The notes under the pieces: model-generated
Told to the model about the DNA's origin: nothing
The model's database searches: none
The model's input: the letters and a program-made list of their open reading frames with translations, nothing else
Program-made: the position numbers and the translations under genes
From: Chthoniobacteraceae bacterium
Lineage (GTDB): Bacteria; Verrucomicrobiota; Verrucomicrobiia; Chthoniobacterales; Chthoniobacteraceae
Assembly (NCBI GenBank): GCA_031409655.1
Contig: JANNXQ010000257.1
Coordinates: 1 to 36,169 of the forward strand
Length of the DNA: 36,169 nt
Direction: 5' to 3'
Part shown: piece by piece, positions 1,839-21,974 of the stretch
Numbering within the stretch: position 1 is the stretch's first letter
How the letters are laid out: each line of letters opens with the position of its first letter

Positions 1839-3269
1839 ATGAATCTCCCGCATCTCCCCGCGATCCGTCGCGGCAAACCCTACGAAAGTCTCGACAAGAC
1901 CCAGGTCCTCAATCACCGCACCGGCCTGCCGATGGCCAGCGTCAGCCAGGTGAATGCGGGCATCATCCGCAAGGATCTCGCGAAGATCGGCGAGGCGCGC
2001 GCGGCGCTGAAGAAATTCTCCGTCGCGCAGCTCATCGAGATCTCCGCGCAGGCCGGCGAGATTTTCCTCAAAGGCGAACTGCCGCTCGGCGACCAGGGAC
2101 ACAAGCAGACGCGCATCCAGTACATCGAGACGCTCAGTGCCACGAGCGGACTGCCGCACAACATGGTGCAGCGGAACATGCAGAAGATTCACCACGCGAT
2201 GACGCACATGGGCGTGGTGCTCAATGGCCTCACGCGCGGACTCGCGCCGCTCGTCATCGATCGCGGCTACGGCGAGCAGAGCGGCGCGGCCGTGAGCTAC
2301 TACCCGACGACGAATGCCCTCGGGCTCGTGATGCCGAGCAATTCGCCCGCGGTGAATTCGCTCTGGCTCCCGGCTATCGCGCTGAAGACGCCGGTGATCA
2401 TCAAGCCCGGCCGCGAAGAGCCTTGGACGCCGTATCGTTTGATCCAGGCCTTCATCGCTGCCGGTGCGCCGGCGGAGGCGTTCGGCTTTTATCCCACCGA
2501 TCACGAAGGCTCCGCGGAAGTGATGAAGAGCTGCGGACGCGCGCTCATCTTCGGCGATGCGAATACGGTCGCGCAGTATAAGGACAATCCGAAATTCTCC
2601 GTCCACGGCCCGGGCTTCAGCAAGATCCTCATCGGCGACGACGAGATCGAAAACTGGCGGCACTACGTGGATCTCATGGTCGCCTCGATTTCAGAAAATG
2701 GCGGACGCTCCTGCGTGAATGCGAGCTGCGTGGTGGTGCCGAAATACGGCGCGGAGATCGCCGACGCCCTCGCGCGGAAACTCGGCGCTTACGAGCCGCT
2801 GCCCTTCGACGACGAGCACGCGAAGCTTTCCGGCTTTGCTAATCCGAAGATGGCGGACTTCATCGACGCCGCGATCGAGGACGGCCTGAAGACCCCCGGC
2901 GCGACGGACGTAACCGCGAAGTATCGCCACGGCTCACGCAAAGCGGAGTTTCAAGGCGGCGTGTATCTGCGCCCGACCATCGTCCATTGCGAGAGCTTCC
3001 AGCACCCACTCTCGAACAAGGAATACCTCTGCCCTTACGCCAGCGTCGTCGAAGTGCCGCAGAAGGACATACTCGCGCAGATCGGGGACTCGCTGGTCGT
3101 CACCGCCATCACGAAAGACCCCGCCTTCACCGAGCAACTCCTCGACTCCCACCTCATCGAACGCCTGAACCTCGGCCCGATCTCGACGATGAAGATCTCC
3201 TGGGACCAGCCGCACGAAGGCAACATGTTCGAGTTCCTCTACAAACGCCGCTCGATCGAGCGGGCGTAG
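1839..3269 (+). CDS. Aldehyde dehydrogenase / acyl-CoA reductase-like family protein
   Basis: 'VMPSNSP', 'IIKPG', catalytic-Cys region 'NGGRSCVNAS', 'EYLCP'; 476 aa. Confidence 0.85.
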   Translation: MNLPHLPAIRRGKPYESLDKTQVLNHRTGLPMASVSQVNAGIIRKDLAKIGEARAALKKFSVAQLIEISAQAGEIFLKGELPLGDQGHKQTRIQYIETLSATSGLPHNMVQRNMQKIHHAMTHMGVVLNGLTRGLAPLVIDRGYGEQSGAAVSYYPTTNALGLVMPSNSPAVNSLWLPAIALKTPVIIKPGREEPWTPYRLIQAFIAAGAPAEAFGFYPTDHEGSAEVMKSCGRALIFGDANTVAQYKDNPKFSVHGPGFSKILIGDDEIENWRHYVDLMVASISENGGRSCVNASCVVVPKYGAEIADALARKLGAYEPLPFDDEHAKLSGFANPKMADFIDAAIEDGLKTPGATDVTAKYRHGSRKAEFQGGVYLRPTIVHCESFQHPLSNKEYLCPYASVVEVPQKDILAQIGDSLVVTAITKDPAFTEQLLDSHLIERLNLGPISTMKISWDQPHEGNMFEFLYKRRSIERA

Positions 3270-3311
3270 AACGAGCAGGCTTTTTTGCGCTGCTCGCTCT
3301 CCGGTAAGGTT

Positions 3312-6090: not shown

Positions 6091-6128
6091 TGCGGTTGTC
6101 GCGGTTATTACGCAGACGTATAAATCCG
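6091..6128 (+). promoter_or_regulatory. Second copy of promoter/operator (TTGTCG-N17-TATAAA; TACG-CAGA-CGTA)
   Basis: TACGCAGACGTATAAATCCG identical to 1790-1809; upstream of the ADH sub-operon. Confidence 0.7.
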
Positions 6129-6247: not shown

Positions 6248-7393
6248 ATGCATTCCGTCGGCTTCGATTTTCAACCCCGCACTCGGGTCGTTTTTGGCGC
6301 CGATACCCTGGAGCGCGTGGGTGAACTGGCGCGCGATCTGGGCGGCAAAAGGATCCTGCTCGTGACGGACAAAGGACTCGCCGCCGCTGGGCATCCGACG
6401 CGCGCGATCGGGTTCCTGGAGGCCGCTGGTCTCCATGTCACGGTGTATGACGAGGTCCGGGAAAATCCGACGACCCTCGACGTGGATCGCTGCGTCCGCG
6501 CGGCGCAGGACGCGGGTATCGATTTTTTCGTCGGCCTCGGCGGCGGGAGCAGCATGGACACGGCGAAAGGCGCGAACTTCATCCTCACCAATGGCGGTGA
6601 GATGAAGGACTACTGGGGCGTGTGCAAGGCGGCGAAGCCGATGCTGCCGCTGATCGCGATCCCGACGACTTCCGGCACCGGGAGCGAATGTCAGTCCTTT
6701 GCGCTGATCTCAGATGAAGAGACGCACATGAAGATGGCGTGCGGCGATCCGAAGGCGGCGGCGCGCGTGGCCATCCTCGATCCCCTGCTCACCCTCTCGC
6801 AGCCAGCACGGGTCACGGCCTGCACCGGCATCGATGCGCTGGCGCACGCCGTCGAGACGGCGGTAACGAAGAAACGCACGCCGCTTTCGGCGATGTATTC
6901 CCACGAGGCTTTCCGGCTCTGCATCGGCAGCCTCGAGCGGGTGCTCCGCGATCCGCGCGATCTCGAAGCGCGCAGCATGATGCAGCTCGGTGCGGCCTTC
7001 GCCGGCACGGCGATCGAAAACTCCATGCTCGGCGCCGCGCACGCCGCGGCCAATCCGCTGACCGCAAACTTCGGCATCGTCCACGGCCAGGCCGTCGGGC
7101 TGATGCTGCCGGGGGTGGTGCGCTTCAATGCGCGCGATTCCGAGGCCCATGCGCGCTACCATGAACTGGCCGCCGAGGCGGATCTCGGGCCCATCGACGA
7201 GCTGATCGGCGAACTCCAGACGATCCTCGACGTGGCGAAAATGCGCGAAGGCCTCAGCCAACTCGGCATCGCCCGCGATACCCTGCCCAAGCTTGCCGTG
7301 GAGGCCTCGAAGCAATGGACCGCGACTTTCAATCCGCGTCCGATCGGCGCGGAAGATTTCGAGCAGCTCTACGTGGAGGCGCTCGGGCTATGA
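6248..7393 (+). CDS. Iron-containing alcohol dehydrogenase
   Basis: 'GLGGGSSMD', 'PTTSGTGSE', metal ligands 'DALAHAVE' and 'AAHAAA...IVHG'. Confidence 0.93.
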   Translation: MHSVGFDFQPRTRVVFGADTLERVGELARDLGGKRILLVTDKGLAAAGHPTRAIGFLEAAGLHVTVYDEVRENPTTLDVDRCVRAAQDAGIDFFVGLGGGSSMDTAKGANFILTNGGEMKDYWGVCKAAKPMLPLIAIPTTSGTGSECQSFALISDEETHMKMACGDPKAAARVAILDPLLTLSQPARVTACTGIDALAHAVETAVTKKRTPLSAMYSHEAFRLCIGSLERVLRDPRDLEARSMMQLGAAFAGTAIENSMLGAAHAAANPLTANFGIVHGQAVGLMLPGVVRFNARDSEAHARYHELAAEADLGPIDELIGELQTILDVAKMREGLSQLGIARDTLPKLAVEASKQWTATFNPRPIGAEDFEQLYVEALGL

Positions 7394-8580
7394 GGGGAAA
7401 CATCGAACATCGAACGTCGAACATCGAACATCGAAGGTTCGCCACCACGCTGCGTTACGGTATCCGAGTGCTCCTCGTTGGATGTTCGCTGTTCGACGTT
7501 CAATGTTCGATGTTCTCCGCCGCCGCCGCCGATTGGCCCATGCACCGCGGCAGCCCCGAACTCCGCGGGATCGCGCAAATGCCCGCTCCGGAGAAGGTCG
7601 AACTCGCCTGGCAATTCAAAGCCGAGAAGCCCGTGAAAGCCGCCGCTGCGATCGCCGGCGGTCGCGTCTTCTTCGGGGACGATGCCGGGAAGATCTACGC
7701 CGTCGATCTCGCGACTGGAAAGGAAGTGTGGTCCTTCAAAACCGAAGCCGGCATCGAAGCCACGCCGCTCGTGCTCGAAGGCGTCGTCTTCCTCGGCTCT
7801 GGCGATGGCAGTCTCTACGCCCTCGACGCCGCGACCGGCGTGGAAAAGTGGCGCTACAAGACCGACGACAAAATCCTCGGCGGCGCGAACTACGCGAAGA
7901 ACCCCACCGGCAACGGCCACTGGATCCTCGTCGGCAGTTACGACTCCAGCCTGCATTGCATCGATGCCGCCACCGGCAAAGGCATCTGGAAGCACGAGAC
8001 CGAAAATTACATTAACGGCGCGCCCGTCGTCACGCCGGATGGCGAGATCATCTTCGGCGGTTGCGACAGCTTCATCCACGTCCTCGCGCTGAAGGACGGC
8101 AGCGAACTGCGCCAGATCGAATCCGAAGCCTACATCGCCTCCTCCGTCGCCACCGCCGACGGCCTCGGTTACGTCGGTAACTACGGCAACATCGTCATCG
8201 CCTTTAACCCCAAGGACGGCGCGATCCTCTGGAAGTATCGCGACCGCAATTTCCCCTACTACTCCTCCGCCGCCGTCACCGAAGACCGGGTCATCCTCGG
8301 CTGCCGCGACAAGCGCCTGCACTGCATCGACCGCGCCACCGGCAAAGGCGTCTGGACCTTCCAGACCCGCGGCGAAGTCGAGAGCTCGCCCGTCGTCTGC
8401 GGCGAAGTAATCGTCGTCGGCTCCGGCGATGGCCGGCTCTACGGCGTGAGCCTCGCCGATGGCAAGGAACGCTGGGCCTACGAAATCGGCGCCCCCGTGA
8501 CCGCGTCACCCGCCGTCGCCGATGGCCGGATCGTCATCGGCGCGGAAGACGGCGCGGTGTATTGCTTCACCGCTAAGTAG
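7390..8580 (+). CDS. Secreted PQQ-like (BamB-like) beta-propeller repeat protein
   Basis: ATGA overlap with the ADH stop; signal peptide ending 'SAAAA-DWPMHRG'; repeated 'A.D..TG...W' blades. Confidence 0.88.
   Translation: MRGNIEHRTSNIEHRRFATTLRYGIRVLLVGCSLFDVQCSMFSAAAADWPMHRGSPELRGIAQMPAPEKVELAWQFKAEKPVKAAAAIAGGRVFFGDDAGKIYAVDLATGKEVWSFKTEAGIEATPLVLEGVVFLGSGDGSLYALDAATGVEKWRYKTDDKILGGANYAKNPTGNGHWILVGSYDSSLHCIDAATGKGIWKHETENYINGAPVVTPDGEIIFGGCDSFIHVLALKDGSELRQIESEAYIASSVATADGLGYVGNYGNIVIAFNPKDGAILWKYRDRNFPYYSSAAVTEDRVILGCRDKRLHCIDRATGKGVWTFQTRGEVESSPVVCGEVIVVGSGDGRLYGVSLADGKERWAYEIGAPVTASPAVADGRIVIGAEDGAVYCFTAK
7399..7514. repeat. Inverted heptamer arrays: 5x AACATCG-like (7399-7433) and 5x CGATGTT-like (7480-7514)
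   Basis: Read directly from the sequence; arms are reverse complements and lie in the signal-peptide coding region. Confidence 0.85.
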
Positions 8581-9438: not shown

Positions 9439-9451
9439 TTAATACGCATAC
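9439..9451 (+). promoter_or_regulatory. Degenerate third copy of the operator (TTAATACGCATAC)
   Basis: 12 of 13 bases match 1786-1798 (TTAATACGCAGAC); about 57 bp upstream of the radical SAM gene. Confidence 0.5.
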
Positions 9452-9508
9452 ACACTATTTCGTTGCGTCGTCCCTCCGTATCCGCGACTCTCCCGCCGCC
9501 CCGCCACT

Positions 9509-10843
9509 ATGACCACTGAGACCTTCGACCGCCTGCTCGCCGATGGCGACGAGACCACTGCCGGGAACTACTTCGTCGCGAACTACCCGCCGTTTTCGTT
9601 TTGGGAAAAGGACAAGGCCGAGGAGGTCCGCCGCGCGCTCGCCAATCCCGCGCCGCCCGAGGTTCCGCTCGGCGTTTATTTCCACATCCCCTTTTGCCGG
9701 AAGCGCTGCCACTTCTGCTACTTCCGCGTCTATACGGATAAGAACGCCGACGACATCAAGGGCTACCTCGACGACGGGATGCGCGAACTGGAGATGTATG
9801 CCGCGACGCCGCGCATCGCGGGGCGGAAGCCGAAGTTCGTCTATTTCGGAGGCGGCACGCCGAGTTACTTGAGCGTCGCGCAACTCACCGCGCTCACCGA
9901 TCGCATGAAGGCGATGCTGCCGTGGGACGAAGCCGAGGAGGTCGCCTTCGAGGCGGAGCCGGGCACGCTCACCGAGGCCAAGCTGAGCGCCATCCGCGAC
10001 ATCGGCATCACCCGGCTGTCGCTCGGCGTCGAGAACTTCGACAAGCATCTCCTGGAGATCAACGGGCGCGCGCACAAAGAGGACGAAATCTACCGCGCTT
10101 ACAATTTCGCCCGGAAGATCGGTTTCCCGCAGATCAACATCGACCTCATCGCCGGGATGATCGAGGAGACCGACGCCAACTGGCAGCGCAACATCGCCAA
10201 GACCATCGAGCTGCAACCGGACAGCGTCACGATCTACCAGATGGAGATCCCGTATAACACGACCATCTACCAGGAGATGAAGGCCGCGGGGAAGTTGGTC
10301 GCGCCGGTCGCCGACTGGCACACTAAGCGGCGCTGGGTGGAGGAGGCATTCGCGGCCCTGGAAAAGAACGGCTACACCGTGACTAGCGCGACCACCGCTG
10401 TGCGCGATCCGCAGAAGACGAAGTTCCTTTACCGCGATCTGCTCTGGCAGGGTGCGGACTTACTCGGCCTCGGCGTCGCCAGCTTCAGCCATGTCGCCGG
10501 CGTACATTTTCAAAATCTGCCGGACTTCGAGAGCTATACCGCGGCCGTCGAGCGCGGCGAACTGCCCATCGGTCGTGCGCTGGCGACCACCGTCGAAGAG
10601 CGCATGATCCGTGAACTAATTCTGCAATTGAAGTTGGGCCGGGTCAGCCAGAGTTACTTTCAGGAGAAGTTTGGCGTCGTCATCGCCCAGCGTTTTCACG
10701 AACCCATCGACGAATTGAAGCGCCGCGGCCTGCTCTCCGCGCAAGGCGACTGGCTGGTGCTCACCCGTGGCGCACTGCTCAAGGTGGACGTGATCCTGCA
10801 CGCCTTCTTTCTCCCGCAGCACCGCAACGCCCGGTACACATGA
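9509..10843 (+). CDS. HemN/HemW-like radical SAM protein
   Basis: 'YFHIPFCRKRCHFCYF' (CxxxCxxC), 'YFGGGTPS', 'RLSLGV', 'INIDLIAG', 'LLGLGVASFS'. Confidence 0.9.
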   Translation: MTTETFDRLLADGDETTAGNYFVANYPPFSFWEKDKAEEVRRALANPAPPEVPLGVYFHIPFCRKRCHFCYFRVYTDKNADDIKGYLDDGMRELEMYAATPRIAGRKPKFVYFGGGTPSYLSVAQLTALTDRMKAMLPWDEAEEVAFEAEPGTLTEAKLSAIRDIGITRLSLGVENFDKHLLEINGRAHKEDEIYRAYNFARKIGFPQINIDLIAGMIEETDANWQRNIAKTIELQPDSVTIYQMEIPYNTTIYQEMKAAGKLVAPVADWHTKRRWVEEAFAALEKNGYTVTSATTAVRDPQKTKFLYRDLLWQGADLLGLGVASFSHVAGVHFQNLPDFESYTAAVERGELPIGRALATTVEERMIRELILQLKLGRVSQSYFQEKFGVVIAQRFHEPIDELKRRGLLSAQGDWLVLTRGALLKVDVILHAFFLPQHRNARYT

Positions 10844-11385
10844 CGGCTCCCGCCTCCCAGACCGATCTCCTCTATCCGCTCTCCCACTTTTTCCGCCTGA
10901 GCGGGGAAGTGCTTCCACCGTGCGAAAGCATCTCCGGCCCGGCCATGCCCGAGCCGTATCGCGCGCTCCTCGTGCACCATGGAGACATGACTTCACGGCT
11001 GGAGAAGTTTCACGGCGCCGCGATGAAACTCCGCGTGCTGCACTCCGAGCACGAGGGGAATACCTACCGCCGCGAAGTGCTGCTCTGCACCGAGGACGGT
11101 GGACTGCCCGTGGAGTACGGCGCGATCGCCATCGACCTCACGCAGTTTGCCGAGCCGTTGCGCTCGCTCATCCTGGGAGGCCGCCAGCCGCTTGGCGGAC
11201 TGCTCAATCGCCACGCCATCCGCTATCGCAGCGAGCCGCGCGCCTTCCTTCGGCTGGCCCCGGACTCGGCGATGGATGCCCATTTTGACCTCGTGGGGGC
11301 GCACACGCTCTATGGCCGGTGCAATGTTTTGCTCGGGGACCGCGACCAAGTGCTCGCGCGGATCGTAGAAGTCTTACGCCCATGA
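10840..11385 (+). CDS. Chorismate pyruvate-lyase (UbiC/UTRA) fold protein
   Basis: Pattern 'DMTSRLE...YRREVLL...PLGGLL...YGRCNVL...RIVEVL' parallels UbiC-fold motifs; ATGA-coupled on both sides. Confidence 0.6.
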   Translation: MTAPASQTDLLYPLSHFFRLSGEVLPPCESISGPAMPEPYRALLVHHGDMTSRLEKFHGAAMKLRVLHSEHEGNTYRREVLLCTEDGGLPVEYGAIAIDLTQFAEPLRSLILGGRQPLGGLLNRHAIRYRSEPRAFLRLAPDSAMDAHFDLVGAHTLYGRCNVLLGDRDQVLARIVEVLRP

Positions 11386-12638: not shown

Positions 12639-13918
12639 GCGTGCGGCTCGGGTTGCTGCTCTGCTTCGCCACGGCCTCCGCGGTGGCTGCGGACTGGCCG
12701 CATTTCCTCGGGCCGAACTACGACAACACCTCCGCCGAAACTGGCCTGCTCGACGAATGGCCCGCGGAAGGTCCGCGCAAGCTGTGGGAGTATCCGAAAG
12801 GTGCGGGCCACTCCACGCCGGCGATCAGTGGCGGGCGCGTGGTCGTCTTCCACGCGGAGGGGAAGAAAGAAATCGTCGATGCGCTCGACGCGCGCAGCGG
12901 CGAGCGGCAGTGGCGCCACGAATACGACGCGCCCTTTACCCCGAAATACGGCGGCGGCTCCGGCCCATGCACAAACCCAACGATTGCCGACGGACGCGTC
13001 TTCACACTCGGACTTTCGAGCCGACTGCACTGCCTCGATCTCGCCACGGGCAAAGTCCGGTGGCAGCGCGACCTCGCCAGGGAGTATGACTTACTGCCGA
13101 CCTTCTTCGGCCAGGGTGGCACGCCACTCGTGTTCGGGAATCGGCTGATCGTCTCCCTCGGCACGAGGGATCAGAAGTCCGTCATCGCGCTCGATGCCGC
13201 GACCGGCAAAGAAGTTTGGGCCGCGAAACACGCGTGGGGTTCAAGTTACTCCTCACCCATTCCGGCGACGCTCCACGGCCGCGAGTGCATCCTCGCTTTC
13301 CAAGGTGGCATGGAGGAAACGCCGACCGGCGGCCTGCTCGTCATCGATGCAAAGACTGGTGCGGTCCTCAGCGCCACGCCACATCGGGCGACGATGTTTG
13401 CCAGCGTGAATGTGTCCGCGCCCGTCGTAGTCGGAAACCGCATCTTCATCGCCGAGGCTTACACGGAGGGCGGCGTGTGCGTGGAGATCGCACCGGACTT
13501 TTCCGCCAAGGCAGTGTGGACCGCGAAGAAGTTCGACACGTATCTCACCACCGCCGTGGCGCACCAAGGTCACCTTTACGGTTCGGCCGGGATGCATCAG
13601 CAAAATGCCGAATTCGCCTGCTCCGAGATCGCCTCGGGCAAAGAGCAGTGGCGCGCGGATCTTGGCGGAAAATTCCAACGCGCATCCTTGATCCGCGCCG
13701 ACGGTTCCTTCCTCTGCCTCGGTGAAAACGGGGACCTCGCCTGGCTCGATCTCTCGCCCAAAGGGGCCGCGATCAAGATGCGGGCGAAACTCTTCCACGC
13801 GCCCGAGACCTGGACGCCACCCGTTATCAGCGATAGCCGTCTTTTCATCTGCCAGAACCAACCCGGCACTGGTGGAACGAAAGCGCGGGTGATCTGCTAC
13901 GGGTTTGCGGGGAAATGA
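12635..13918 (+). CDS. Secreted PQQ-like beta-propeller repeat protein
   Basis: Signal peptide 'ASAVA-ADWPHFLGP'; repeated 'ALDA.TG...W' blades; 'TWTPP'. Confidence 0.88.
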   Translation: MSVRLGLLLCFATASAVAADWPHFLGPNYDNTSAETGLLDEWPAEGPRKLWEYPKGAGHSTPAISGGRVVVFHAEGKKEIVDALDARSGERQWRHEYDAPFTPKYGGGSGPCTNPTIADGRVFTLGLSSRLHCLDLATGKVRWQRDLAREYDLLPTFFGQGGTPLVFGNRLIVSLGTRDQKSVIALDAATGKEVWAAKHAWGSSYSSPIPATLHGRECILAFQGGMEETPTGGLLVIDAKTGAVLSATPHRATMFASVNVSAPVVVGNRIFIAEAYTEGGVCVEIAPDFSAKAVWTAKKFDTYLTTAVAHQGHLYGSAGMHQQNAEFACSEIASGKEQWRADLGGKFQRASLIRADGSFLCLGENGDLAWLDLSPKGAAIKMRAKLFHAPETWTPPVISDSRLFICQNQPGTGGTKARVICYGFAGK

Positions 13919-15273
13919 ACATCGTCCTCCTGACCCCCGGCACCGGCAGCTACCACTGCGGCGTGTGCATGCGCGACAATGCGCTCGCGCGGGAACTCAT
14001 CCGCCAGGGCCATCGCGCGCTGATGCTGCCGATGTATCTCCCGCTCACCCTCGACGAAGACGCGGCGTCTCCGCAGACGCCGATCTTTTTCGGCGGCGTG
14101 AGCACCTACTTGCGGGAGAAAGTGCCACTGCTCCGCCACATGCCGCGCTGGCTGGATCGACTGCTTTCGCAGCGCGCTTTGCTCAAACTTCTCGCGGGAA
14201 AAGCCGCCGCAAAAACCGGCGGGCCGGACGTCGCGGAGATGACGCTCTCGATGTTGCGCGGGGAGGAGGGAAATCAGGCGGGCGAAATCGAGGAGCTGAT
14301 CGCGTGGCTGCGCGAACACGGAAAACCCGCGGCCGTGTGGATCTCGACCGCCCTCCAGGCCGGGCTCGCGCGGCGGATCAAGGCGGCGCTCCGTGTGCCG
14401 GTGCTTGGTTTCCTGCAAGGTGAAGACACTTTCATCGATGGACTCGGCGAGCCGTGGAGTGCGCGCGTGTGGGCCTTGCTCGCGGAGCGGATGCGCGATG
14501 CGGATCTGTGGATCGCGCCGAGCCGTTACTTTGCGGATCGCATGGCGAAAAGACTCGGGTGGAGTGCGGAGGAATGTGCGCGGCGGGTGCGGGTGATTCC
14601 GAATGGGGTGTCGCTCGAGGGGTATGAAACTCCAAACTCCAAACTCCAAACTCCAAACTCCAAACCGACCATCGGCTACCTCGCGCGGTTTGTGCCCGGC
14701 AAAGGAATCGGGCTGCTCGTCGATGCTTTCATCCTGCTGAAGAAACGCGGGCGCTTTCCCGACTTGAAATTGCGCTGCGCGGGCTCGATGACGGACGGCG
14801 ATGCGCGCTACGTCGAGACGCTCCAGGCGCGGCTCGCGGACGCGGGCGTGGCCGGAGAGGTCGAGTGGCTGCCGAATGTGAGCCGCGAGGAGAAGATCAC
14901 CTTCCTCGAAAGCCTTACCGTTTTCTCCGTGCCGGCGACTTACAGCGAAGCTTTCGGGCAATACGTCATCGAAGCGCTCGCGGCGGGCGTGCCGGTGGTG
15001 CTGCCGCGGGCCTCGGCTTTCCCGGAGATCGTTGAGGCGACGGGCGGCGGGTGGCTCTTCGACCTCGGTTCGGACGAGGCGCGCAGTGCGGAGCATCTGG
15101 CCGAGGCCCTCGAAACAGCGCTCGCCGATCCCGCCGCGGCGCGTGCTGCCGGAGAGCGCGGGCGCGAAGCGGTGCGGCGCGAATACACCATGACGCGGCT
15201 TGCCGAGCGGCTCGTCGCGGCGACCTCTGCCCTCGGCCAAGGCAGCCTTGCCCGTGCGGGAGCGGTCCAGTAG
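13915..15273 (+). CDS. Glycosyltransferase family 4 (GT-B)
   Basis: 'VIPNGV', 'IGYLARFVPGKG', EX7E motif 'EAFGQYVIEALAAGVPVV'; N-terminal 'YHCGVCMRD'. Confidence 0.9.
   Translation: MNIVLLTPGTGSYHCGVCMRDNALARELIRQGHRALMLPMYLPLTLDEDAASPQTPIFFGGVSTYLREKVPLLRHMPRWLDRLLSQRALLKLLAGKAAAKTGGPDVAEMTLSMLRGEEGNQAGEIEELIAWLREHGKPAAVWISTALQAGLARRIKAALRVPVLGFLQGEDTFIDGLGEPWSARVWALLAERMRDADLWIAPSRYFADRMAKRLGWSAEECARRVRVIPNGVSLEGYETPNSKLQTPNSKPTIGYLARFVPGKGIGLLVDAFILLKKRGRFPDLKLRCAGSMTDGDARYVETLQARLADAGVAGEVEWLPNVSREEKITFLESLTVFSVPATYSEAFGQYVIEALAAGVPVVLPRASAFPEIVEATGGGWLFDLGSDEARSAEHLAEALETALADPAAARAAGERGREAVRREYTMTRLAERLVAATSALGQGSLARAGAVQ
14627..14661 (+). repeat. Perfect heptamer tract (AAACTCC)x5 in the GT4 inter-domain linker
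   Basis: Read directly; encodes ETPNSKLQTPNSK. Confidence 0.9.
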
Positions 15274-15282: not shown

Positions 15283-15519
15283 ATGGCTCCCGATCGCATT
15301 CGTCAGCAACTCCGCAAAATGCCCTTCGTCCCGTTCACGGTCGAACTGGCGAGCGGGAAGCGCGTTCGTATCGAACATCCAGATTACACCATGCTTTCTC
15401 CGGCCGGGCGCACGCTCGTCGTCTTTACCGACCTCGACGATACCAATATGGAGATGATCGACGTCTTCCTGATCACGAATCTCTCCATCGAGAGCGGCAG
15501 CGAGACGGCGACCGCCTGA
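15283..15519 (+). CDS. Small hypothetical protein (78 aa)
   Basis: 'IRQQLRKMPFVPFTVELASGKRVRIEHPDY'; fits exactly between GT4 and the thioesterase (TGATG overlap). Confidence 0.7.
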   Translation: MAPDRIRQQLRKMPFVPFTVELASGKRVRIEHPDYTMLSPAGRTLVVFTDLDDTNMEMIDVFLITNLSIESGSETATA

Positions 15520-15974
15520 TGCCTCACGAATTCAAGCTCACCCGGCGCATCGAGTTTGCCGAGACGGACATGGCCGGGATCGTCCACTTCGCGAATTTCT
15601 TCCGCATGATGGAGGCCACCGAGCACGCTTTCTTCCGGTCGCTCGGCTTTTCCATCCACGCGCATGAAAATGGCGCGACCACTGGCTGGCCGCGGGTCAG
15701 TGCGGCGTGCGATTACCGCGCGCCGTTGCGTTTCGAGGAGGAGGTCGAGATTCACCTCCTCGTCGCCGAAGTGCGCTCCCGTTCGATCCGTTACCAGTTC
15801 ATCTTCCGGAGAGTCGCCGACGGCACCGAAGTCGCCCGCGGACGGATCGCCGCCGTCTGCGCGAGCGTGGACAAGACCACCGGCAAGCTCGTGCCCGTAC
15901 CCATCCCGGAAAATATCCGCAGTAAGATCACGCCCGCGCCGGCGGAGTTGATTACTTCCACTTCCTCCAACTAA
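15519..15974 (+). CDS. Acyl-CoA thioesterase, 4HBT/YbgC hotdog family
   Basis: 'FAETDMAGIVHFANFFRMME', 'CDYRAPLRFEE'. True start MPHEF at 15519. Confidence 0.9.
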   Translation: MPHEFKLTRRIEFAETDMAGIVHFANFFRMMEATEHAFFRSLGFSIHAHENGATTGWPRVSAACDYRAPLRFEEEVEIHLLVAEVRSRSIRYQFIFRRVADGTEVARGRIAAVCASVDKTTGKLVPVPIPENIRSKITPAPAELITSTSSN

Positions 15975-15986: not shown

Positions 15987-16529
15987 ATGCCCGCCACCGA
16001 CTCCCACACTTCCACCACTTGGCTCACCTTTGCCCTGCTCACCGTGCTCTGCTGGGGCACTTACGGCGTCTTTCTCCACACGGGGCAGATGGGCATGGCC
16101 GATCCCGCGAATGGGCGCATGAAGGCGTTTCTTTTCGTCGGCATCGCGTACTTCCTCGCGGCGGTGCTGGCGCCGCTCATCATCCTCGTCCTCAGCGGGG
16201 CGACCTGGGTGTATCCGTTCAAGGGCATGGCGTGGTCGCTCATCGCGGGGATCGTCGGGGCGATCGGTGCGCTCGGGGTGCTGCTCGCTTTCGGCGCAAA
16301 AGGGAATCCCGCGGTGGTCATGACCATCGTCTTCTCCGGGGCGCCAGTGGTGAATGCGATCATCTCGCTGATCGTCGCGCCGCCCGACGGTGGGCTGGGG
16401 AAAGTGCCGGGACTTTTCTGGGTCGGGATGATCATGGCCGTGGTCGGCGGCGCGCTCGTGACGAAAAACAAACCCGCACCGCATGTCGCGAAGAAGCCAG
16501 TGGCCGTGGTCGAGCAGAGCGCGAAGTAG
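15987..16529 (+). CDS. Small multi-pass membrane protein (single EamA/DMT-like repeat)
   Basis: About 5 hydrophobic helices; 'FALLTVLCWGTYG', 'GAPVVNAII'. Confidence 0.7.
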   Translation: MPATDSHTSTTWLTFALLTVLCWGTYGVFLHTGQMGMADPANGRMKAFLFVGIAYFLAAVLAPLIILVLSGATWVYPFKGMAWSLIAGIVGAIGALGVLLAFGAKGNPAVVMTIVFSGAPVVNAIISLIVAPPDGGLGKVPGLFWVGMIMAVVGGALVTKNKPAPHVAKKPVAVVEQSAK

Positions 16530-16613: not shown

Positions 16614-17837
16614 ATGACTCAACTCGAACGCCTCCGAGTGTTGCTCGCGCGGATCACGCCGGGCAATCGCTTCTACACCCGCCGACTCGCCGCTGCGGGG
16701 GTGACATCCGACGTTGCGAGTCTCGCGGAGTTTTCGGAGCGCATGACTTTCACGCACAAGGTGGAACTCGTCAGCGACCAGGCGCAGCATCCGCCTTACG
16801 GCTCGAACCTCACCGAGCCGCTCGAACGCTACACGCACTTCTGCCAGACGAGCGGGACCACGGGCCGGCCGCTGGTCTGGCTCGACACGGAGGAGAGCTG
16901 GGAGTGGTTGCAGGAGAATTGGGCGGCGAAGTATCGCGCCGCGCGGCTCGCCCAGGGGGAGCGCATCTACTTCGCGTTTTCCTTCGGGCCGTTCCTTGGC
17001 TTCTGGACGGCTTTCACGGCGGCGGCGCGGTGCGGGCATCTCGGAATTCCTGGCGGCGGACTCGGCAGCGGCGCGCGGCTGCGGGCGATGATCCAGCACC
17101 GCGCGACGGTGCTCTGCTGCACGCCCACTTATGCCCTGCATCTCACTCACGCGGCGGCGGAGGAAGGCATCGACCTGCGCGAAGCGGCGGTGCGCCACAT
17201 CATCGTCGCCGGCGAGACCGGCGGAAGCGTGCCGGAAGTCCGCGAGCGGATCAGCCGCGCGTGGAATGGTGCGATCGTGCTCGATCACTACGGGATGACG
17301 GAAGTCGGGCCGGTCGCGTATCAGACGCCGGAGCACCCTGGACTGATGCACGTCATCGAGGACAGCTACTATGCCGAGATCGTGGAGCCGGAGACCGGCG
17401 AGCCCGTCGCGCCGGGTGCCGTGGGCGAACTCGTTCTCACCACGCTCGGGCGCTCCGCATGTCCGCTGCTGCGCTATCGCACCGGCGATCTCGTGCGCCG
17501 CGCGCTGGACGTGCCGGGCTTTGCGCTGGCCGGCGGGATCATCGGACGCGCGGATGACATGGTCATCGTGCGCGGCGTGAATCTCTACCCGAGCGCCGTG
17601 GATGCCGTGGTGAAGCTGATCCCCGCAGTGCTCGAATATCGCGTCGAGGTCACCCGGCGCGGCGCGCTTCCCGAGATCGAAGTGCAGATCGAATCGCCGG
17701 ACGACGACGCGGCGAAGAAGCTCGAGCGCGCCTTGAACGCGGCGTTTTCCCTGCGCATCCCGGTGACGCGCGTGGCGGCGCATTCGCTCCCGCGCTTCGA
17801 GATGAAGGCGCGCCGCTGGGTGAAAACCGGTCTATGA
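16614..17837 (+). CDS. Phenylacetate-CoA ligase (PaaK)-like adenylate-forming enzyme
   Basis: 'TSGTTG', 'DHYGMTE', 'RYRTGD', 'GRADDMVIVRGVN.YPS'. Start MTQLER after the REP. Confidence 0.88.
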   Translation: MTQLERLRVLLARITPGNRFYTRRLAAAGVTSDVASLAEFSERMTFTHKVELVSDQAQHPPYGSNLTEPLERYTHFCQTSGTTGRPLVWLDTEESWEWLQENWAAKYRAARLAQGERIYFAFSFGPFLGFWTAFTAAARCGHLGIPGGGLGSGARLRAMIQHRATVLCCTPTYALHLTHAAAEEGIDLREAAVRHIIVAGETGGSVPEVRERISRAWNGAIVLDHYGMTEVGPVAYQTPEHPGLMHVIEDSYYAEIVEPETGEPVAPGAVGELVLTTLGRSACPLLRYRTGDLVRRALDVPGFALAGGIIGRADDMVIVRGVNLYPSAVDAVVKLIPAVLEYRVEVTRRGALPEIEVQIESPDDDAAKKLERALNAAFSLRIPVTRVAAHSLPRFEMKARRWVKTGL

Positions 17838-18538
17838 GTGCTCTTCCCACCATGCTCCTCGAAGTCCGCAACCTTACTAAAACCTACCGCGCGCCGGACG
17901 GCGGCGATGCCGTCGATGTCCTGCGCGGCGCGAATCTGAACCTGACCGCTGGCGAGACGCTCTCGATCGTCGGCCCGTCGGGTTCGGGGAAGAGCACGCT
18001 GCTCAATATCGTCGGGGCGCTGGATCGCGCGGACTCGGGCGAGGTGCTCGTCGAGGGGCGCGATGTGGAAAAGCTGAGCGAGGCCGAGGTCGCCGCGTAT
18101 CGCAACACCACCATCGGCTTCATCTTCCAGCTCCATCATCTGCTGCCGCAATGCACGATCCTGGAGAATGTGCTCGTGCCCACGCTCGCGCGGGCCCGCG
18201 GCGACCGCGCGGCTTTGCGCACGCGCGCGGAGAAGCTGCTCGAAGCGGTGGGCCTGAGCCATCGCGTGCATCACCGGCCCGGACAACTCTCTGGCGGCGA
18301 ACGCCAGCGCGTGGCGGTGGCGCGGGCGCTCATCAATGAACCCAAGCTGCTCCTCGCCGACGAACCGACCGGCGCGCTGGATCGCACCAACGCGGCGCGG
18401 CTCGTCGATCTCCTGCTGGAGATCAGTGGGTCGCACGATGTCGCCGTGATGATGGTCACGCACGCCCCCGAACTCGCGAAGCGGATGGCGCGTGCGGTGG
18501 AATTGGTGGATGGGAAATTCGAGGAGGTGCGGCAGTGA
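17834..18538 (+). CDS. ABC transporter ATP-binding protein, LolD/MacB-type
   Basis: Walker A GPSGSGKS, 'IGFIFQLHHLLP', LSGGE, 'LLLADEPTGALD', 'VTH'. Confidence 0.95.
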   Translation: MSALPTMLLEVRNLTKTYRAPDGGDAVDVLRGANLNLTAGETLSIVGPSGSGKSTLLNIVGALDRADSGEVLVEGRDVEKLSEAEVAAYRNTTIGFIFQLHHLLPQCTILENVLVPTLARARGDRAALRTRAEKLLEAVGLSHRVHHRPGQLSGGERQRVAVARALINEPKLLLADEPTGALDRTNAARLVDLLLEISGSHDVAVMMVTHAPELAKRMARAVELVDGKFEEVRQ

Positions 18539-18539
18539 G

Positions 18540-18705
18540 TCCGGGGAGCGCGCCCGTCTCGGGCGCTGGTTTCGGCGTCCCGCCGGAACGAACTTTCGCG
18601 ACGCATTCTTTGCAGAGCAACGGTTGCCGCGAATCCGATTGCACCACGAAAGTCCGCGGCGGCGGGACGCCGCCGCCAGCGCCCGAGACGGGCGCGCTCC
18701 CCGGA
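18540..18705. repeat. Long inverted repeat (REP doublet/REPIN-like), intergenic
   Basis: TCCGGGGAGCGCGCCCGTCTCGGGCGCTGG...GGCGTCCCGCC pairs with GGCGGGACGCC...CCAGCGCCCGAGACGGGCGCGCTCCCCGGA. Confidence 0.8.
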
Positions 18706-18746
18706 GCTTTCCGCCCGCGCGTCGATCTGCGCACCCGCACCGTCCG

Positions 18747-21700
18747 ATGACGCCCCTCACTTTCATCCTCGCCAGCGCCCGGCACTACTGGCGCACCCAT
18801 CTCGGCGTGATCCTCGGCGCGGCGCTGGCCACGCTCGTGCTCACGGGCTCGCTGCTCGTTGGCGATTCGGTGAAAGGCACCCTGAAGCGTCAGGCACTGG
18901 CGCGCGTCGGGCAGGCGCAATCGGCCTTCACTGGCGGCGATCGTTTCTTTCGCGAAGCGCTCGCAGACGCCGCTCCGGCGCTCATCGTCCGCGCGACCGT
19001 CGCAAAAGCAGACGGCACAGCGCGCGTGAATGCGGCGCAGGTACTCGGCGTGGATCAGCGGTTCTGGAAACTCTCTCCATCCGGTGCGGACGTCGCGCTT
19101 CCCGACGACGGCATCGCGCTGAACGCACGCCTCGCCACGCAGCTCGCAGTGAAAGCCGGCGACGCCGTGATCGTGCGCGTGGAGAAGCCGGGCGCATTCT
19201 CGCGCGACGCGCCGCTCTCTGGCGAGGAAGGCGATCTGGTGGCGCTCCGCTTAAAAGTTTCACGCATTGTCGGGGACACCGAGTTCGGTCGGTTCGCACT
19301 GGCCGCAGGCCAGGTGCCGCCCTTTTCCGGATACGTTCCGCTGTCGGTCTTGCAAGAAAAGCTCGCGCTGAAAGGCCGTGCAAACCTCCTCCTCTCGCGC
19401 GACGAGAAACTAACCGCCACGCTTCAGCTCGACGACGCCAGTCTCGCGCTCCGCGATCTTCCGAACGGCTCCGGCCTCGAACTGCGCACCTCGCGCGTTT
19501 TCCTCGATCCGCCCATCGTCGCTGCCGCACCGCAGGCACCGGATCGCCGCCGCGTCGATGCGCTCACGTACTTCGTAAATGAACTGCGCGCGGGGGAGAA
19601 GGCCACGCCTTACTCGATGGTTACGGCAGTGGAGACGGCGTCGTCGGGATTTCTGCCGGCCGAGTTGGCGGATGATGAGATCGTGCTCTCGCAATGGACG
19701 GCGGACGATCTCGGCGTGACGACGGGCGGCAAGGTGACGGTGAAATATTTCACGATGGGCGAGCGGCGGGAGCTGGTGGAAAAGGAGCGCGCCTTCACGG
19801 TGCTCGCGGTGCTGCCGATGTCGGAGCCGCAGCTCAACACCTCGTGGATGCCGGATTTTCCCGGCCTCGCGGATAAGCAGAACTGCCGCGATTGGAAGCC
19901 GGGGTTTCAGTTCGATGCGACGCGGATGCGGGACAAGGATCAGGAGTACTGGGAGCAGTATCGCGGGACGCCGAAGGCTTTCGTGAATTTGCACATCGGG
20001 CAGCAGATGTGGGGGAATCGCTGGGGAAATACGACCGCGCTCCGCTGGCCCGCGGGCACTGATCGCGTGGAGATTGAGCAGGCGCTGCGCGAGAAAATCA
20101 CGCCGGAGATGCTCGGGTTTCAATTCCTCCCGCTGCGCGAACAGGCGCTCGCGGCGACCAAGGCGCCGGTGGATTTCGGCCGGCTCTTCGTGAGCTTTTC
20201 CGCGTTCCTCATCGCGGCGGCGGCGGTGCTCACGGGACTGCTCTTTGTCTTCACGCTGGAGCAGCGCGCGGCGGAATCAGGCACGCTGCTCGCGCTCGGT
20301 CTGCCGCAGAAACTCGTGCGGCGGATGTTGCTCACGGAAGGTGCGGTGCTGGCGCTGGTCGGGAGTGTGCTCGGGGCCCTCGGTGCGGTGATCTACACGA
20401 AGCTGGTGCTGCGCGGGCTGGCGACGGTTTGGAAAGGCGCGGTGGGTGCCGTGGAGTTTCAATTCAGTGCGGGGCCGTGGACGATTCCGATCGGCGTTGT
20501 TTCGGGAGTCGAGATTGCGGTGCTCGCGATGTGGCTGGCGAGCCGGCGGCTCTTCCGGCATTCGGCGACGGAGTTGCTGCAAGGAGAAGGGGCGCCCTCG
20601 CCCATTGTGGCAGACTCGGGGCGAGGGCGCCCCAACTCCGTGGGGATACCTTCGACGGTCGCGGTGGGTTGTCTTGCAGGGGCGCTGGCGATTCCAATCT
20701 TCACTCGGAATGCAGGAGGTTTTTTTGGTGCGGGTGCGCTACTGCTCATCGCCGGTCTGCTCTTCGCGCTCGGCCGTCTGCGGCGGACGGCAAGCGGGAC
20801 GGGTCTCGAGTCGCTCGGTCAACTCGGCGTGCGCAATGCGGCGCGGCGGCGGGGGCGGAGCCTGGCGACGATCGCGGTGCTGGCGAGCGGCGTCTTCATG
20901 GTGGTGGCGGTGAGTGCGTTTCGGAAGGGTCCGCAGGTCGAGACGTTGAAGCTCGACTCGGGCACCGGTGGCTTTGCGCTGCTCGGCGAAGCGGCGTCGC
21001 CGATTTACGAAGACCTCAACTCGGCGAAAGGGCGCGAGACTTACGCGCTCGACGAGGTGGCGCTGAAGGACGTGCGGGTCATTCCGCTGCGCGTGCGGGA
21101 TGGCGACGATGCGAGCTGCCTGAATCTCAATCGCGCGCTCCAGCCGCGGCTGCTCGCGGTCAAGGCGGAGGATCTGGATGCGCCGCAGACGCGCTTTCGC
21201 CTGAACGCTGGCGACGCGAAATCGTGGACCTTGGCATTGGCCCGGCGCGACGACGGCGCGGTGCCCGGCATCGTCGATGCGAACACGCTCCAGTGGGCGA
21301 TGCAGAAGAAAGTCGGCGATGCCATCGAGTATCGCGACGACCGCGGGCAGACCTTGCGCGTCGTGATCGTCGGCACGATCGGCGGCTCGATGCTCCAGGG
21401 GAATGTGCTCATCGCCGAGCGCGACTTCACGGCGCGCTTCCCAAATTCCGGCGGCTACCGTCTCTTCCTCATCGACGCACCGGCGGAGCGCGCGGAGGCG
21501 GTGGCGCAGGAACTCTCGCGCGCCTTGCAGGATCGCGGCTTGGAGGTGACGCCAGCCGCGCGGCGACTCGCGGAATTCAACGCGGTGGAGAATACTTACC
21601 TCTCGATCTTCCAGGTGCTCGGCGGGCTTGGGCTGTTGCTCGGTTCGGCGGGGCTGGCGATCGTCGTTGCGCGCAATGTGCTCGAGCGGCGGCGGGAGTT

Positions 21701-21974
21701 TGGGCTGCTCGAAGCGGTCGGCTTCCGCGCGCAGCAGCTGCGCAAGCTCGTCTTTGCCGAGCATCGCTGGCTCATCGTTGCCGCGCTCGTCATCGGCACG
21801 GTGAGTGCGCTGGTGGCGGTCTGGCCGAGTCTCGCGGAAAAGGCGGGCGGCTTTCCGCTGCGCGAAGTGGCACTGCTGCTCGCGGGGCTCGCGCTTGGGT
21901 GCGTCTTCTGGACCTGGATTGCGACGCGGGTGGCGCTGCGTGGGAGCGGGGTCGCGGCGCTGCGCTCGGAGTGA
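18747..21974 (+). CDS. Large duplicated FtsX/MacB-type (type VII) ABC permease, about 1075 aa
   Basis: Two periplasmic plus FtsX halves: 'EQRAAESGTLLALG' and 'LERRREFGLLEAVGF'. Start MTPLTFIL; the track's upstream extension runs through the REP. Confidence 0.9.
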   Translation: MTPLTFILASARHYWRTHLGVILGAALATLVLTGSLLVGDSVKGTLKRQALARVGQAQSAFTGGDRFFREALADAAPALIVRATVAKADGTARVNAAQVLGVDQRFWKLSPSGADVALPDDGIALNARLATQLAVKAGDAVIVRVEKPGAFSRDAPLSGEEGDLVALRLKVSRIVGDTEFGRFALAAGQVPPFSGYVPLSVLQEKLALKGRANLLLSRDEKLTATLQLDDASLALRDLPNGSGLELRTSRVFLDPPIVAAAPQAPDRRRVDALTYFVNELRAGEKATPYSMVTAVETASSGFLPAELADDEIVLSQWTADDLGVTTGGKVTVKYFTMGERRELVEKERAFTVLAVLPMSEPQLNTSWMPDFPGLADKQNCRDWKPGFQFDATRMRDKDQEYWEQYRGTPKAFVNLHIGQQMWGNRWGNTTALRWPAGTDRVEIEQALREKITPEMLGFQFLPLREQALAATKAPVDFGRLFVSFSAFLIAAAAVLTGLLFVFTLEQRAAESGTLLALGLPQKLVRRMLLTEGAVLALVGSVLGALGAVIYTKLVLRGLATVWKGAVGAVEFQFSAGPWTIPIGVVSGVEIAVLAMWLASRRLFRHSATELLQGEGAPSPIVADSGRGRPNSVGIPSTVAVGCLAGALAIPIFTRNAGGFFGAGALLLIAGLLFALGRLRRTASGTGLESLGQLGVRNAARRRGRSLATIAVLASGVFMVVAVSAFRKGPQVETLKLDSGTGGFALLGEAASPIYEDLNSAKGRETYALDEVALKDVRVIPLRVRDGDDASCLNLNRALQPRLLAVKAEDLDAPQTRFRLNAGDAKSWTLALARRDDGAVPGIVDANTLQWAMQKKVGDAIEYRDDRGQTLRVVIVGTIGGSMLQGNVLIAERDFTARFPNSGGYRLFLIDAPAERAEAVAQELSRALQDRGLEVTPAARRLAEFNAVENTYLSIFQVLGGLGLLLGSAGLAIVVARNVLERRREFGLLEAVGFRAQQLRKLVFAEHRWLIVAALVIGTVSALVAVWPSLAEKAGGFPLREVALLLAGLALGCVFWTWIATRVALRGSGVAALRSE
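20580..20642. repeat. Copy of the 16547 REP inserted in-frame inside the permease gene
   Basis: CAAGGAGAAGGGGCGCCCTCGCCC...GGGGCGAGGGCGCCCCAACTCCGTG; 63 nt = QGEGAPSPIVADSGRGRPNSV. Confidence 0.8.

Follow-up and report, generated by a model that had tools for sequence, protein, structure and literature searches.

A conserved gene set of Verrucomicrobiota and Acidobacteriota with a possible role in making a halogenated aryl glycoside for the periplasm

Contig JANNXQ010000257.1 (C257) of the Chthoniobacteraceae bacterium assembly GCA_031409655.1, a stretch of 36,169 nucleotides referred to here as the window, contains a block of genes for a HemN-like radical S-adenosylmethionine (SAM) enzyme, a protein with the chorismate lyase (UbiC) fold, a flavin-dependent halogenase, a family 4 glycosyltransferase (GT4), and their predicted partners (Table 1). 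These genes belong to a conserved gene set that is shared by members of Verrucomicrobiota and Acidobacteriota. The respective pathway comprises about 18 genes, most of which are in the window. The chances are about even that this is a single conserved pathway without carrier proteins and that three of its modules, out of at least five under common regulation, lie in the window. Judging from the encoded enzyme families, this pathway might, with comparable chances for and against, halogenate, C1-modify, reduce, and glycosylate a 4-hydroxybenzoate-type acid and deliver the product to the periplasm. The source genome (6.85 Mb, 63% GC, 306 contigs, 94.9% complete) has its nearest titled relatives among the metagenome-assembled genomes of Chthoniobacteraceae.

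All 14 open reading frames (ORFs) listed in the preliminary description of this DNA exist on the plus strand between positions 1839 and 21974 and look coding by their GC content at third codon positions (0.75 to 0.86); the family labels that they had been given hold in profile and structure comparisons. The suggested coupling of these genes by ATGA and TGATG overlaps is seen at 7 of the 13 junctions (six ATGA and one TGATG), but the block is not contiguous: it consists of three modules, each with its own upstream site, interrupted by unrelated genes. Module 1 is the gene for the aldehyde dehydrogenase (ALDH)-like protein alone (1839-3269), module 2 includes the genes for the iron-containing alcohol dehydrogenase (Fe-ADH) and β-propeller 1 (6248-8580), and module 3 extends from the HemN-like gene through the permease gene (9509-21974). 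The 2978-bp gap 3' of the ALDH-like gene is occupied by an HTH/pRiA4b-ORF3 gene on the plus strand and a PhyH dioxygenase gene on the minus strand, and the 928-bp gap 3' of propeller 1 by a KynB-like cyclase gene on the minus strand; none of the three was found in 80 related loci. The 78-amino-acid ORF, originally counted as a member of the set, falls outside the system, since none of the 80 related loci carries it and it has a paralog (39% identical) on contig C237; its absence from those loci also rules it out as a precursor peptide or carrier. The claim that the block has no polyketide synthase (PKS) or nonribosomal peptide synthetase (NRPS) core was borne out, as the ketosynthase, condensation, and acyl carrier protein families had no match among the 47 window ORFs scanned. 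Similarly, the combination of a ketosynthase or condensation domain with a carrier protein, by which PKS/NRPS, aryl polyene, and flexirubin clusters are recognized, is absent among the recurrent neighbors in 100 loci.

The full extent of the system became apparent when an alignment of 10 HemN-like sequences was run against GTDB and at least 574 loci were confirmed out of 600 pattern matches; the best 80, which were kept, are titled Verrucomicrobiota and Acidobacteriota. The gene order of the intact operon is propeller B, propeller A, SSS/MFS transporter, EhpF-like protein, ALDH-like protein, Fe-ADH, propeller 1, HemN-like protein, UbiC-fold protein, halogenase, (propeller 2), GT4, thioesterase, EamA-like protein, PaaK-like ligase, LolD-type ATPase, and FtsX permease. 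This order is nearly complete in loci L074, L082, L086, L092, L095, L097, L101, and L102, and propeller C heads the operon in some loci. The neighborhood comparison proposed in the preliminary description thus did find extra members, namely the EhpF-like protein, propellers A and B, and the SSS/MFS transporters. In the source genome, propeller A, an MFS transporter, and the EhpF-like protein (84% identical to the copy in genome G024) are encoded in a row on contig C127 (42674-46839), propeller B on C56 (6337-8826), and an SSS symporter on C107 (85309-86880). Among the loci with enough flanking sequence, the HemN-like gene is accompanied by genes for the UbiC-fold protein in 73 of 77, halogenase in 57 of 73, propeller 1 in 45 of 73, GT4 in 40 of 64, thioesterase in 39 of 64, the EamA-like protein in 33 of 60, the PaaK-like ligase in 33 of 57, the FtsX permease in 20 of 49, the ALDH-like protein in 24 of 61, the EhpF-like protein in 21 of 56, and propeller 2 in 15 of 69. 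The lower per-locus counts come from the splitting of the system into modules; in all five genomes picked because their HemN-like locus lacked a halogenase gene, a halogenase homolog (46-59%) is encoded elsewhere. In genome G207, the tailoring genes are split between a UbiC-fold-PaaK-halogenase group (L140:9571-13140) and a HemN-like-thioesterase-PaaK group (L113:7450-10728), with two copies of the PaaK-like gene. A frameshift or a contig break divides the EhpF-like gene in two at G248:C2:728795-729845 and in G001 (C503/C520).

At the level of whole genomes, the co-occurrence of these genes is far above chance. An ortholog of the HemN-like protein (E ≤ 1e-100) is encoded in 15 of 41 relatives, the source genome included (14 of the 25 in the same family and 1 of the 16 in other families of the order), and the EhpF-like gene is found in 16 of them, i.e., in all 15 HemN-like carriers and one fragmented genome. 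The system is patchy and not phylum-wide, because just 3 of 151 genomes in a phylum-wide sample of Verrucomicrobiota, again including the source genome, encode the HemN-like protein. In a sample of 121 genomes of Acidobacteriota, the phylum of a Bryobacteraceae-titled locus, 28 carry the HemN-like gene. The EhpF-like gene is present in 31 of the 121 (28/28 carriers and 3/93 other genomes), GT4 in 32 (28/28 and 4/93), propeller A in 31 (27/28 and 4/93), and the halogenase in 27 (27/28 and 0/93); in G197, the one carrier missed in the propeller A search, the gene is visible in its loci at 39-40%. The genes therefore travel together, where scattered orthologs would have spoken against a common system. 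Their presence is near single-copy and all-or-none, and the identity across phyla is 43-66%. Occurrence in Planctomycetota was taken solely from the taxa of Atlas clusters.

A single type of palindromic operator-like site precedes five modules of the source genome. The window contains two matches to the palindrome versus 0.19 expected, and the site before module 1 has its equivalent before the ALDH-like gene in loci L010, L040-L042, L045, and L046. In the Verrucomicrobiota relatives, the palindrome is found at the head of the module that starts the transcript, before the HemN-like, ALDH-like, or propeller 1 gene. A matrix trained on 35 distinct sites from relatives and run over the entire 6.85-Mb genome gave its four best scores before the HemN-like gene (31.8 bits), the ALDH-like gene (27.7), propeller B on C56 (27.1), and Fe-ADH (25.3), followed by an unrelated site (16.6) and a site before propeller A on C127 (16.2). 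The matches in the window are partly circular, because the consensus used to select the training sites was first seen in the source genome and the sites of close kin are identical; the propeller B site is the least circular match. The exact core, WTACG-N4-CGTAW, is not overrepresented genome-wide (4 found versus 3.07 expected), so that only its placement is informative. No such site was found before the HemN-like gene (4-6 mismatches at best) in the six Acidobacteriota-titled loci in which this gene heads its module (L048, L051, L056, L059, L067, and L070), and no regulator gene recurs beside the cluster in 100 loci and the 12 flank loci listed or is found behind the matrix matches. The third site of the window is located in the intergenic region common to the HemN-like gene and the divergent KynB-like cyclase gene. 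Directly before the first site, there is a WD40-like remnant (1416-1727, plus strand), which is stop-bounded and has no proper start.

The halogenase retains the GxGxxG motif, the catalytic Lys, and the WxWxIP and FxDPxxSxG motifs, which we take to be hallmarks of flavin-dependent halogenases. Residues K70, W215-F-W217-x-I-P220, D300-P301, and S304-S305-G306 are invariant in 37 sequences, and the top PDB matches, including 8ZOP, 3E1T, and PltA, are all halogenases, with E values from 6.7e-87 to 1e-70. Two more halogenase-like flavoproteins, at 40% and 27% to the one in the window, are encoded in a second, separate cluster of the source genome (G000, C54:2222-12243), which, judged from sequence starts only, also contains an AMP-binding-like gene, a carrier-protein-like ORF, and acyltransferase-like genes.

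The HemN-like protein shares the HemN fold and the CxxxCxxC motif with the class C radical SAM enzymes NosN/NocN, MenK/MqnK, and YtkT/C10P at about 30% identity and keeps the two-SAM residues of NocN. On an alignment mapped by hand, its residues Y57, Y112, R169, D212, T241, and Y243, at positions that are at least 95% conserved in 100 sequences, correspond to Y34, Y96, R153, D196, S225, and Y227 of NocN, which the available text of PMC12871812 assigns to the second SAM (SAM-II) and the active site. T241 is a Ser-to-Thr change relative to NocN, and Glu175 is conserved where both HemN and NocN have Gln. Identification as a true HemN was rejected, since the TIGR00538 score is 198 bits against a cutoff of 325 and the HRNFQGY segment of 1OLT aligns to YRDxLW; the His and Phe positions of HemN are taken by Y112 and Y243, with Tyr residues as in NocN. 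HemW was also rejected (TIGR00539, 173 bits against a cutoff of 205), the HNXXYW motif that is named in the available part of PMC10114718 being absent. The same text provides a precedent for aromatic C1 transfer by class C enzymes.

For the UbiC-fold protein, a structural model built from 68 sequences (pLDDT 92.5; the single-sequence model, with 34.6, was not used) matched the DUF98 protein AF1396 (2NWI; Z score 17.3, rmsd 1.7 over 141 residues), UTRA domains (Z scores up to 12.6), and E. coli UbiC (1G81; Z score 11.8), and the hhalign comparison with E. coli UbiC gave 84% at an E value of 7e-6. The fold and the product-binding residues are thus shared with the DUF98/Rv2949c chorismate lyases (AF1396) and UbiC: M50, R78, and L118 align with Met34, Arg76, and Leu114, the 4-hydroxybenzoate-binding residues given in the available text of PMC7879144. 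In the 68 sequences, R78 is invariant and M50 is at least 90% conserved, as is E177, which aligns with a Glu of 2NWI and is probably equivalent to Glu155 of UbiC. Unlike the DUF98/Rv2949c and UbiC lyases, this protein is below Pfam detection and has no ubiA or PKS neighbor. The DUF98/Rv2949c chorismate lyase route to the mycobacterial p-hydroxybenzoic acid derivative (p-HBAD) glycosides may offer an analogy.

Reduction of an acyl group can be predicted from two further proteins. The ALDH-like protein, aligned to ALDH structures, has C292, N168, and H256 invariant in 18 sequences and is a full-length homolog of the product of the ALDH gene located 3' of the AMP-binding gene in the Pantoea phenazine cluster (hhalign, 99.9%), while the EhpF-like protein from C127 matches the EhpF structure with an E value of 6.6e-45. 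The same tandem of an AMP-binding protein and an ALDH-fold reductase is represented by EhpF/EhpG of the Pantoea agglomerans phenazine cluster (PDB 3L2K/3HGU) and, by description, by GriC/GriD of the Streptomyces griseus grixazone cluster, where an aryl acid is reduced via acyl-AMP (available part of PMC10179220). Unlike in these clusters, no phenazine or 3-amino-4-hydroxybenzoic acid (3,4-AHBA) genes are present here. Unlike in the case of EhpF/EhpG, the genes that come after the one for the reductase encode Fe-ADH, the halogenase, the class C radical SAM enzyme, GT4, and propellers, and in the source genome the EhpF-like and ALDH-like genes are on different contigs. The Fe-ADH residues D196/H200/H265/H279, presumably metal ligands, and its GGGS motif are conserved in at least 95% of 41 sequences. 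The unusual C-x-x-C motif and the His of GT4, conserved in at least 95% of 54 orthologs, could possibly form a metal or redox site. The PaaK-like ligase is nearest to coenzyme A (CoA) ligases (PaaK, HCL), with AjiA1/NatL2-type and BagE/FevW relatives lower. The preliminary description had this ligase activate the acid for the reductase, which is unlikely, because the EhpF-like gene is always present (28/28 Acidobacteriota and 15/15 closer carriers) and lies directly 5' of the ALDH-like gene in intact operons; the PaaK-like gene was not found in 18 of the 28 Acidobacteriota carriers.

The source of the aromatic acid appears to differ among species. Of 20 Acidobacteriota loci that were picked for the length of their contigs, just 2 have the UbiC-fold gene adjoining the HemN-like gene, and 10 have within the operon a TonB-dependent receptor gene, usually followed by those for the halogenase, a DUF3311-like small protein, and an SSS symporter. 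The receptor gene is found in 19 of the 28 Acidobacteriota carriers and in 1 of the 93 other genomes (G294, along with EhpF-like, GT4, and propeller A genes). The UbiC-fold gene, searched for with a profile in 30 genomes (the 28 carriers and 2 others; E < 1e-40 kept, rows at 3.6e-6 and 6.4e-4 dropped), is present in 9 of the 28 carriers and unmatched in the remaining 19. The PaaK-like gene (13 of 121 genomes matched at 1e-60, one row of 34% identity dropped) is present in 10 carriers and 2 other genomes. Receptor-positive carriers contain the UbiC-fold gene in 3 of 19 cases versus 6 of 9 for receptor-negative ones (P = 0.013) and the PaaK-like gene in 3 of 19 versus 7 of 9 (P = 0.003), both Fisher values overstating the significance because kin are not independent; the PaaK-like gene is present in 7 of 9 UbiC-fold-positive and 3 of 19 UbiC-fold-negative carriers. 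The UbiC-fold gene, which the preliminary description counted as part of the pathway, is therefore optional. This distribution suggests that the pathway exists in a maker version, with the UbiC-fold protein and PaaK-like ligase, and an importer version, with the TonB receptor and SSS symporter. Since the former two would provide what other species import, they can be inferred to be a front end and not the core of the pathway, and the source genome is a predicted maker. The nearest NCBIfam match of the MFS transporter is the aromatic acid/H+ symporter family, albeit far under the cutoff.

Two alternatives involve the receptor. It scores above the cutoff of the siderophore receptor family TIGR01783 (249.7 versus 223.5), and the conserved residues of propeller A include four His and several Asp/Glu, as would suit a metallophore that is exported and then recovered through this receptor. 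Such a function is highly improbable, given that no ortholog of the receptor was found in the source genome, in the five other Verrucomicrobiota carriers tested, or in 9 of the 28 Acidobacteriota carriers; that the receptor occurs most often in the absence of the supply genes, the reverse of a producer's uptake system; and that no NRPS or NRPS-independent siderophore synthetase gene is present. The cluster could also serve the uptake and catabolism or detoxification of environmental aromatic acids, aldehydes, or alcohols, and its TonB receptor, SSS/MFS importers, CoA ligase, thioesterase, alcohol dehydrogenase, and ALDH fold are indeed common in catabolic loci. This explanation is quite unlikely as well: the ALDH-like protein is without the hydrolytic Glu, the halogenase, class C radical SAM enzyme, GT4, and chorismate lyase fold build rather than degrade, and no ring-cleavage gene recurs in the 100 loci.

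Gene content, gene order, co-occurrence, the common upstream site, and the retained catalytic residues are observed; the steps of the aryl-acid pathway, and their order, are predictions. In the makers, the UbiC-fold protein would free 4-hydroxybenzoate from chorismate and the PaaK-like ligase would activate or couple it; in the importers, the TonB receptor and SSS symporter would take their place. The halogenase is predicted to introduce Cl or Br at a position ortho to the phenol. The ring would receive a carbon from SAM through the class C radical SAM enzyme, probably with a thioester as the substrate, and the 4HBT-type enzyme would then hydrolyze this thioester. The acid could be adenylated by the EhpF-like enzyme and the acyl group reduced to the aldehyde by the EhpG/GriD-like enzyme, with Fe-ADH turning the aldehyde into an alcohol for glycosylation by GT4. 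The product, likely a halogenated, C1-modified hydroxybenzyl glycoside, would leave the inner membrane by way of the LolD/FtsX transporter, for the exported periplasmic propellers to bind, transfer, or use. It may be retained at the envelope, where it would be a ligand or building block of a housekeeping-like kind, and not shed as a toxin. In outline, conservation and the retained residues support what the preliminary description had put forward, a conserved, uncharacterized, carrier-free aryl-acid pathway with reduction, flavoprotein and radical SAM tailoring, glycosylation, and an ABC exporter.

The substrate could instead be another aromatic or heteroaromatic acid, of the pyrrole, indole, aminobenzoate, or phenazine type, with the UbiC-fold protein binding or supplying a side substrate. 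PltA and CndH are among the top halogenase structures, EhpF comes from a phenazine pathway, AjiA1/NatL2-type ligases are among the PaaK matches, NocN acts on an indolyl thioester (PMC12871812, available text), and the UbiC-fold gene was unmatched in 19 of the 28 Acidobacteriota carriers. This option is rather improbable in that the UbiC-fold gene, where it is present, comes directly 3' of its HemN-like neighbor (73 of 77 loci) and has retained the UbiC product-binding residues; genes for phenazine, pyrrole, or aminobenzoate synthesis recur in none of the 100 loci.

Several observations weigh against the 4-hydroxybenzoate pathway as outlined. The nearest structural relatives of the halogenase presumably use carrier-bound substrates, and neither a carrier protein nor a flavin reductase recurs among the ORFs of at least 90 amino acids in the 100 loci. 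The UbiC fold is common to UTRA ligand-binding domains, which score level with UbiC (12.6 versus 11.8), the protein is under the detection limit of Pfam Chor_lyase, and E177 is outside the stretch aligned with UbiC by hhalign. Importers without the PaaK-like ligase keep the thioesterase, leaving the source of its thioester unaccounted for, and 3 of the 28 Acidobacteriota carriers have neither the UbiC-fold gene nor the receptor, while another 3 have both. Finally, EhpF-like, GT4, and propeller A genes were matched in genomes G208, G294, and G310, in which the HemN-like and halogenase genes were unmatched; tailoring may be separable, or the assemblies may have gaps.

The propellers are of a type termed pyrroloquinoline quinone (PQQ)-like. 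Propeller 1 matches the Pfam family Beta-prop_ACSF4, the propeller of the beta-alanine-activating enzyme ACSF4, with 231.6 bits (cutoff, 133), and could be an acyl acceptor. In the PQQ quinoprotein dehydrogenase family TIGR03075, propellers 1 and 2 score 107 and 48 bits versus 480, and propellers A to C are also far below the cutoff; pqqC was unmatched in the source genome and likewise in the control genomes. The conserved His and acidic residues of propeller A can be interpreted as exceeding the needs of a plain scaffold. A bolder and somewhat improbable version of the retained-compound hypothesis would make the product, as a halogenated, methylated hydroxybenzyl glycoside, an undescribed vitamin-like cofactor of these periplasmic "PQQ-like" propellers, its precursor being traded from makers to importers. 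The analogy of such trading to that of PQQ or cobamides is equally tentative. At the start of the propeller 1 gene, there is an inverted repeat (7399-7515) that is read in frame and is found in 105 places on 56 contigs. Other repeats within the block are a short tandem repeat in the GT4 gene (14627-14658; 34 places genome-wide) and the intergenic hairpins at 16547-16608 and 18540-18705 (117 and 56 places genome-wide, respectively).

No description of the present gene set was found in the open-access literature. The most similar locus, compared by description only, is baaA-baaB of Planctomycetales strain 10988, an adjacent lyase-halogenase pair that was proposed, without genetic proof, to produce 3,5-dibromo-p-anisic acid (10.1101/723874). 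Like bmp5/bmp6 and the present cluster, it combines a chorismate-lyase-like gene and a flavin halogenase gene with no megasynthase, and it was missed by antiSMASH; unlike here, no reductase, radical SAM enzyme, GT4, or transporter is described. A broader resemblance is to the Halo_AMP pseudoclass of biosynthetic gene clusters (BGCs) from sponge microbiomes, a bioinformatically defined group of 267 families for which the available text gives no product (10.64898/2026.08.03.742642). According to that text, these BGCs are often found in Acidobacteriota and encode radical SAM enzymes, glycosyltransferases, thioesterases, TonB receptors, ABC transporters, frequent PQQ-like proteins, and BagE/YtkN-like ligases. 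The preliminary description saw in the present cluster none of the signature genes that BGC finders use, but the custom rule that defines these BGCs, a Trp_halogenase and an AMP-binding domain within 5 kb, does apply to it: the Trp_halogenase match scores 105 bits, at a distance of 3975 bp from the AMP-binding gene. The focus component CC A has a P450 core in the same text; identity with it was rejected, as the window has no P450 Pfam match and the ORFs of the 100 loci have no P450 heme motif (regular expression). Another of the 20 Halo_AMP components may be the present gene family. For planctomycetes, the available text of PMC12078418 lists five compound classes only, one of them a 4-hydroxybenzoate ester with unknown genes, and that of PMC11848864 gives no biosynthetic genes. 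The gene set combines known enzyme families in an undescribed way and is predicted to encode a carrier-free halogenated aryl-acid pathway.

These comparisons also bear on the alternative that the product is a baa/bmp-like secreted halophenolic specialized metabolite, exported to the medium by the ABC and drug/metabolite transporter (DMT) proteins. The proposal for baa, the agreement with the Halo_AMP rule, and the occurrence of EhpF/EhpG relatives in antibiotic clusters all lend it some credit. It is nevertheless doubtful, because near single-copy, all-or-none presence at 43-66% identity across phyla, along with periplasmic-type propellers, a dedicated importer, and one common operator, better fits a compound that is retained and needed; for the baa locus, just two genes are described, and BaaB is reported to be about 44% similar to Bmp5 (10.1101/723874).

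Beyond the block, the window encodes a Zn-ribbon membrane protein beside an SPFH/Band-7 protein with a C-terminal HTH (22026-24908, minus strand). These are followed on the plus strand by a row of genes for an alkaline phosphatase, a PEP-CTERM protein, a Rieske protein, and a phytase-like PEP-CTERM protein (25326-31112), suggestive of phosphorus scavenging, and by an MIP channel gene adjoining a low-molecular-weight phosphatase/ArsC-like gene (31325-32421), likely an arsenic-handling pair.

Table 1. Features of the gene block and its intervening genes (coordinates refer to the window)
Feature	Position	Strand	Characteristics
Operator-like site, first	1786..1805	+	Palindromic, before module 1; consensus TAATAC-N6-GTATTA
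EhpG/GriD-type acyl reductase (ALDH fold)	1839..3269	+	Cys292 kept; hydrolytic Glu replaced by His256
HTH + pRiA4b-ORF3 fusion	3692-4942	+	Between modules
PhyH dioxygenase	5034-5912	-	Between modules
Operator-like site, second	6105..6124	+	Before module 2
Iron-containing alcohol dehydrogenase	6248..7393	+	D196/H200/H265/H279 and GGGS
PQQ-like β-propeller 1	7390..8580	+	Conserved Cys225-Asp226
KynB-like cyclase	8587-9225	-	Between modules
Operator-like site, third	9439..9458	+	Variant form, before module 3; top genome-wide matrix match
HemN-like class C radical SAM enzyme	9509..10843	+	CxxxCxxC; NocN-like SAM-II/active-site residues
Chorismate-lyase/DUF98-fold protein	10840..11385	+	UbiC product-binding residues kept
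Flavin-dependent halogenase, CndH/PltA type	11382..12638	+	GxGxxG, K70, GWFWxIP, FLDPVFSSG
PQQ-like β-propeller 2	12635..13918	+	Signal-peptide-like N terminus; clade-restricted, 15/69 loci
GT4 glycosyltransferase	13915..15273	+	Conserved N-terminal C15-x-x-C18 and H33
78-amino-acid ORF	15283..15519	+	Local insertion; no carrier-protein family match
4HBT/YbgC-type hotdog thioesterase	15519..15974	+	D17, H23 conserved
Half-size DMT/EamA-like membrane protein	15987..16529	+	No Pfam match
PaaK-family adenylating ligase	16614..17837	+	Optional; tracks UbiC-fold gene
LolD/MacB-type ABC ATPase	17834..18538	+	
Double FtsX permease	18747..21974	+	1075 amino acids, about 10 hydrophobic segments

Flavin halogenases are usually encoded by patchy, strain-level natural-product genes. 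Here, the halogenase is fixed in a near single-copy, all-or-none gene set that is present in 14 of 25 genomes of the family and 28 of 121 sampled Acidobacteriota. The all-or-none set, the conserved operator, and the make-or-import front ends together point to a needed envelope compound. Abundant bacteria of soil, freshwater, and the sea would need such a compound, which would possibly be an unrecognized biological source of organohalogens. The gene set provides a pathway context for orphan PQQ-like propellers and for the halogenated aromatics reported from planctomycetes. If the product were indeed a cofactor, halogen would be a constituent of a housekeeping molecule, and the orphan propellers, a large family abundant in Verrucomicrobiota, Planctomycetota, and Acidobacteriota, would have a function assigned to them.

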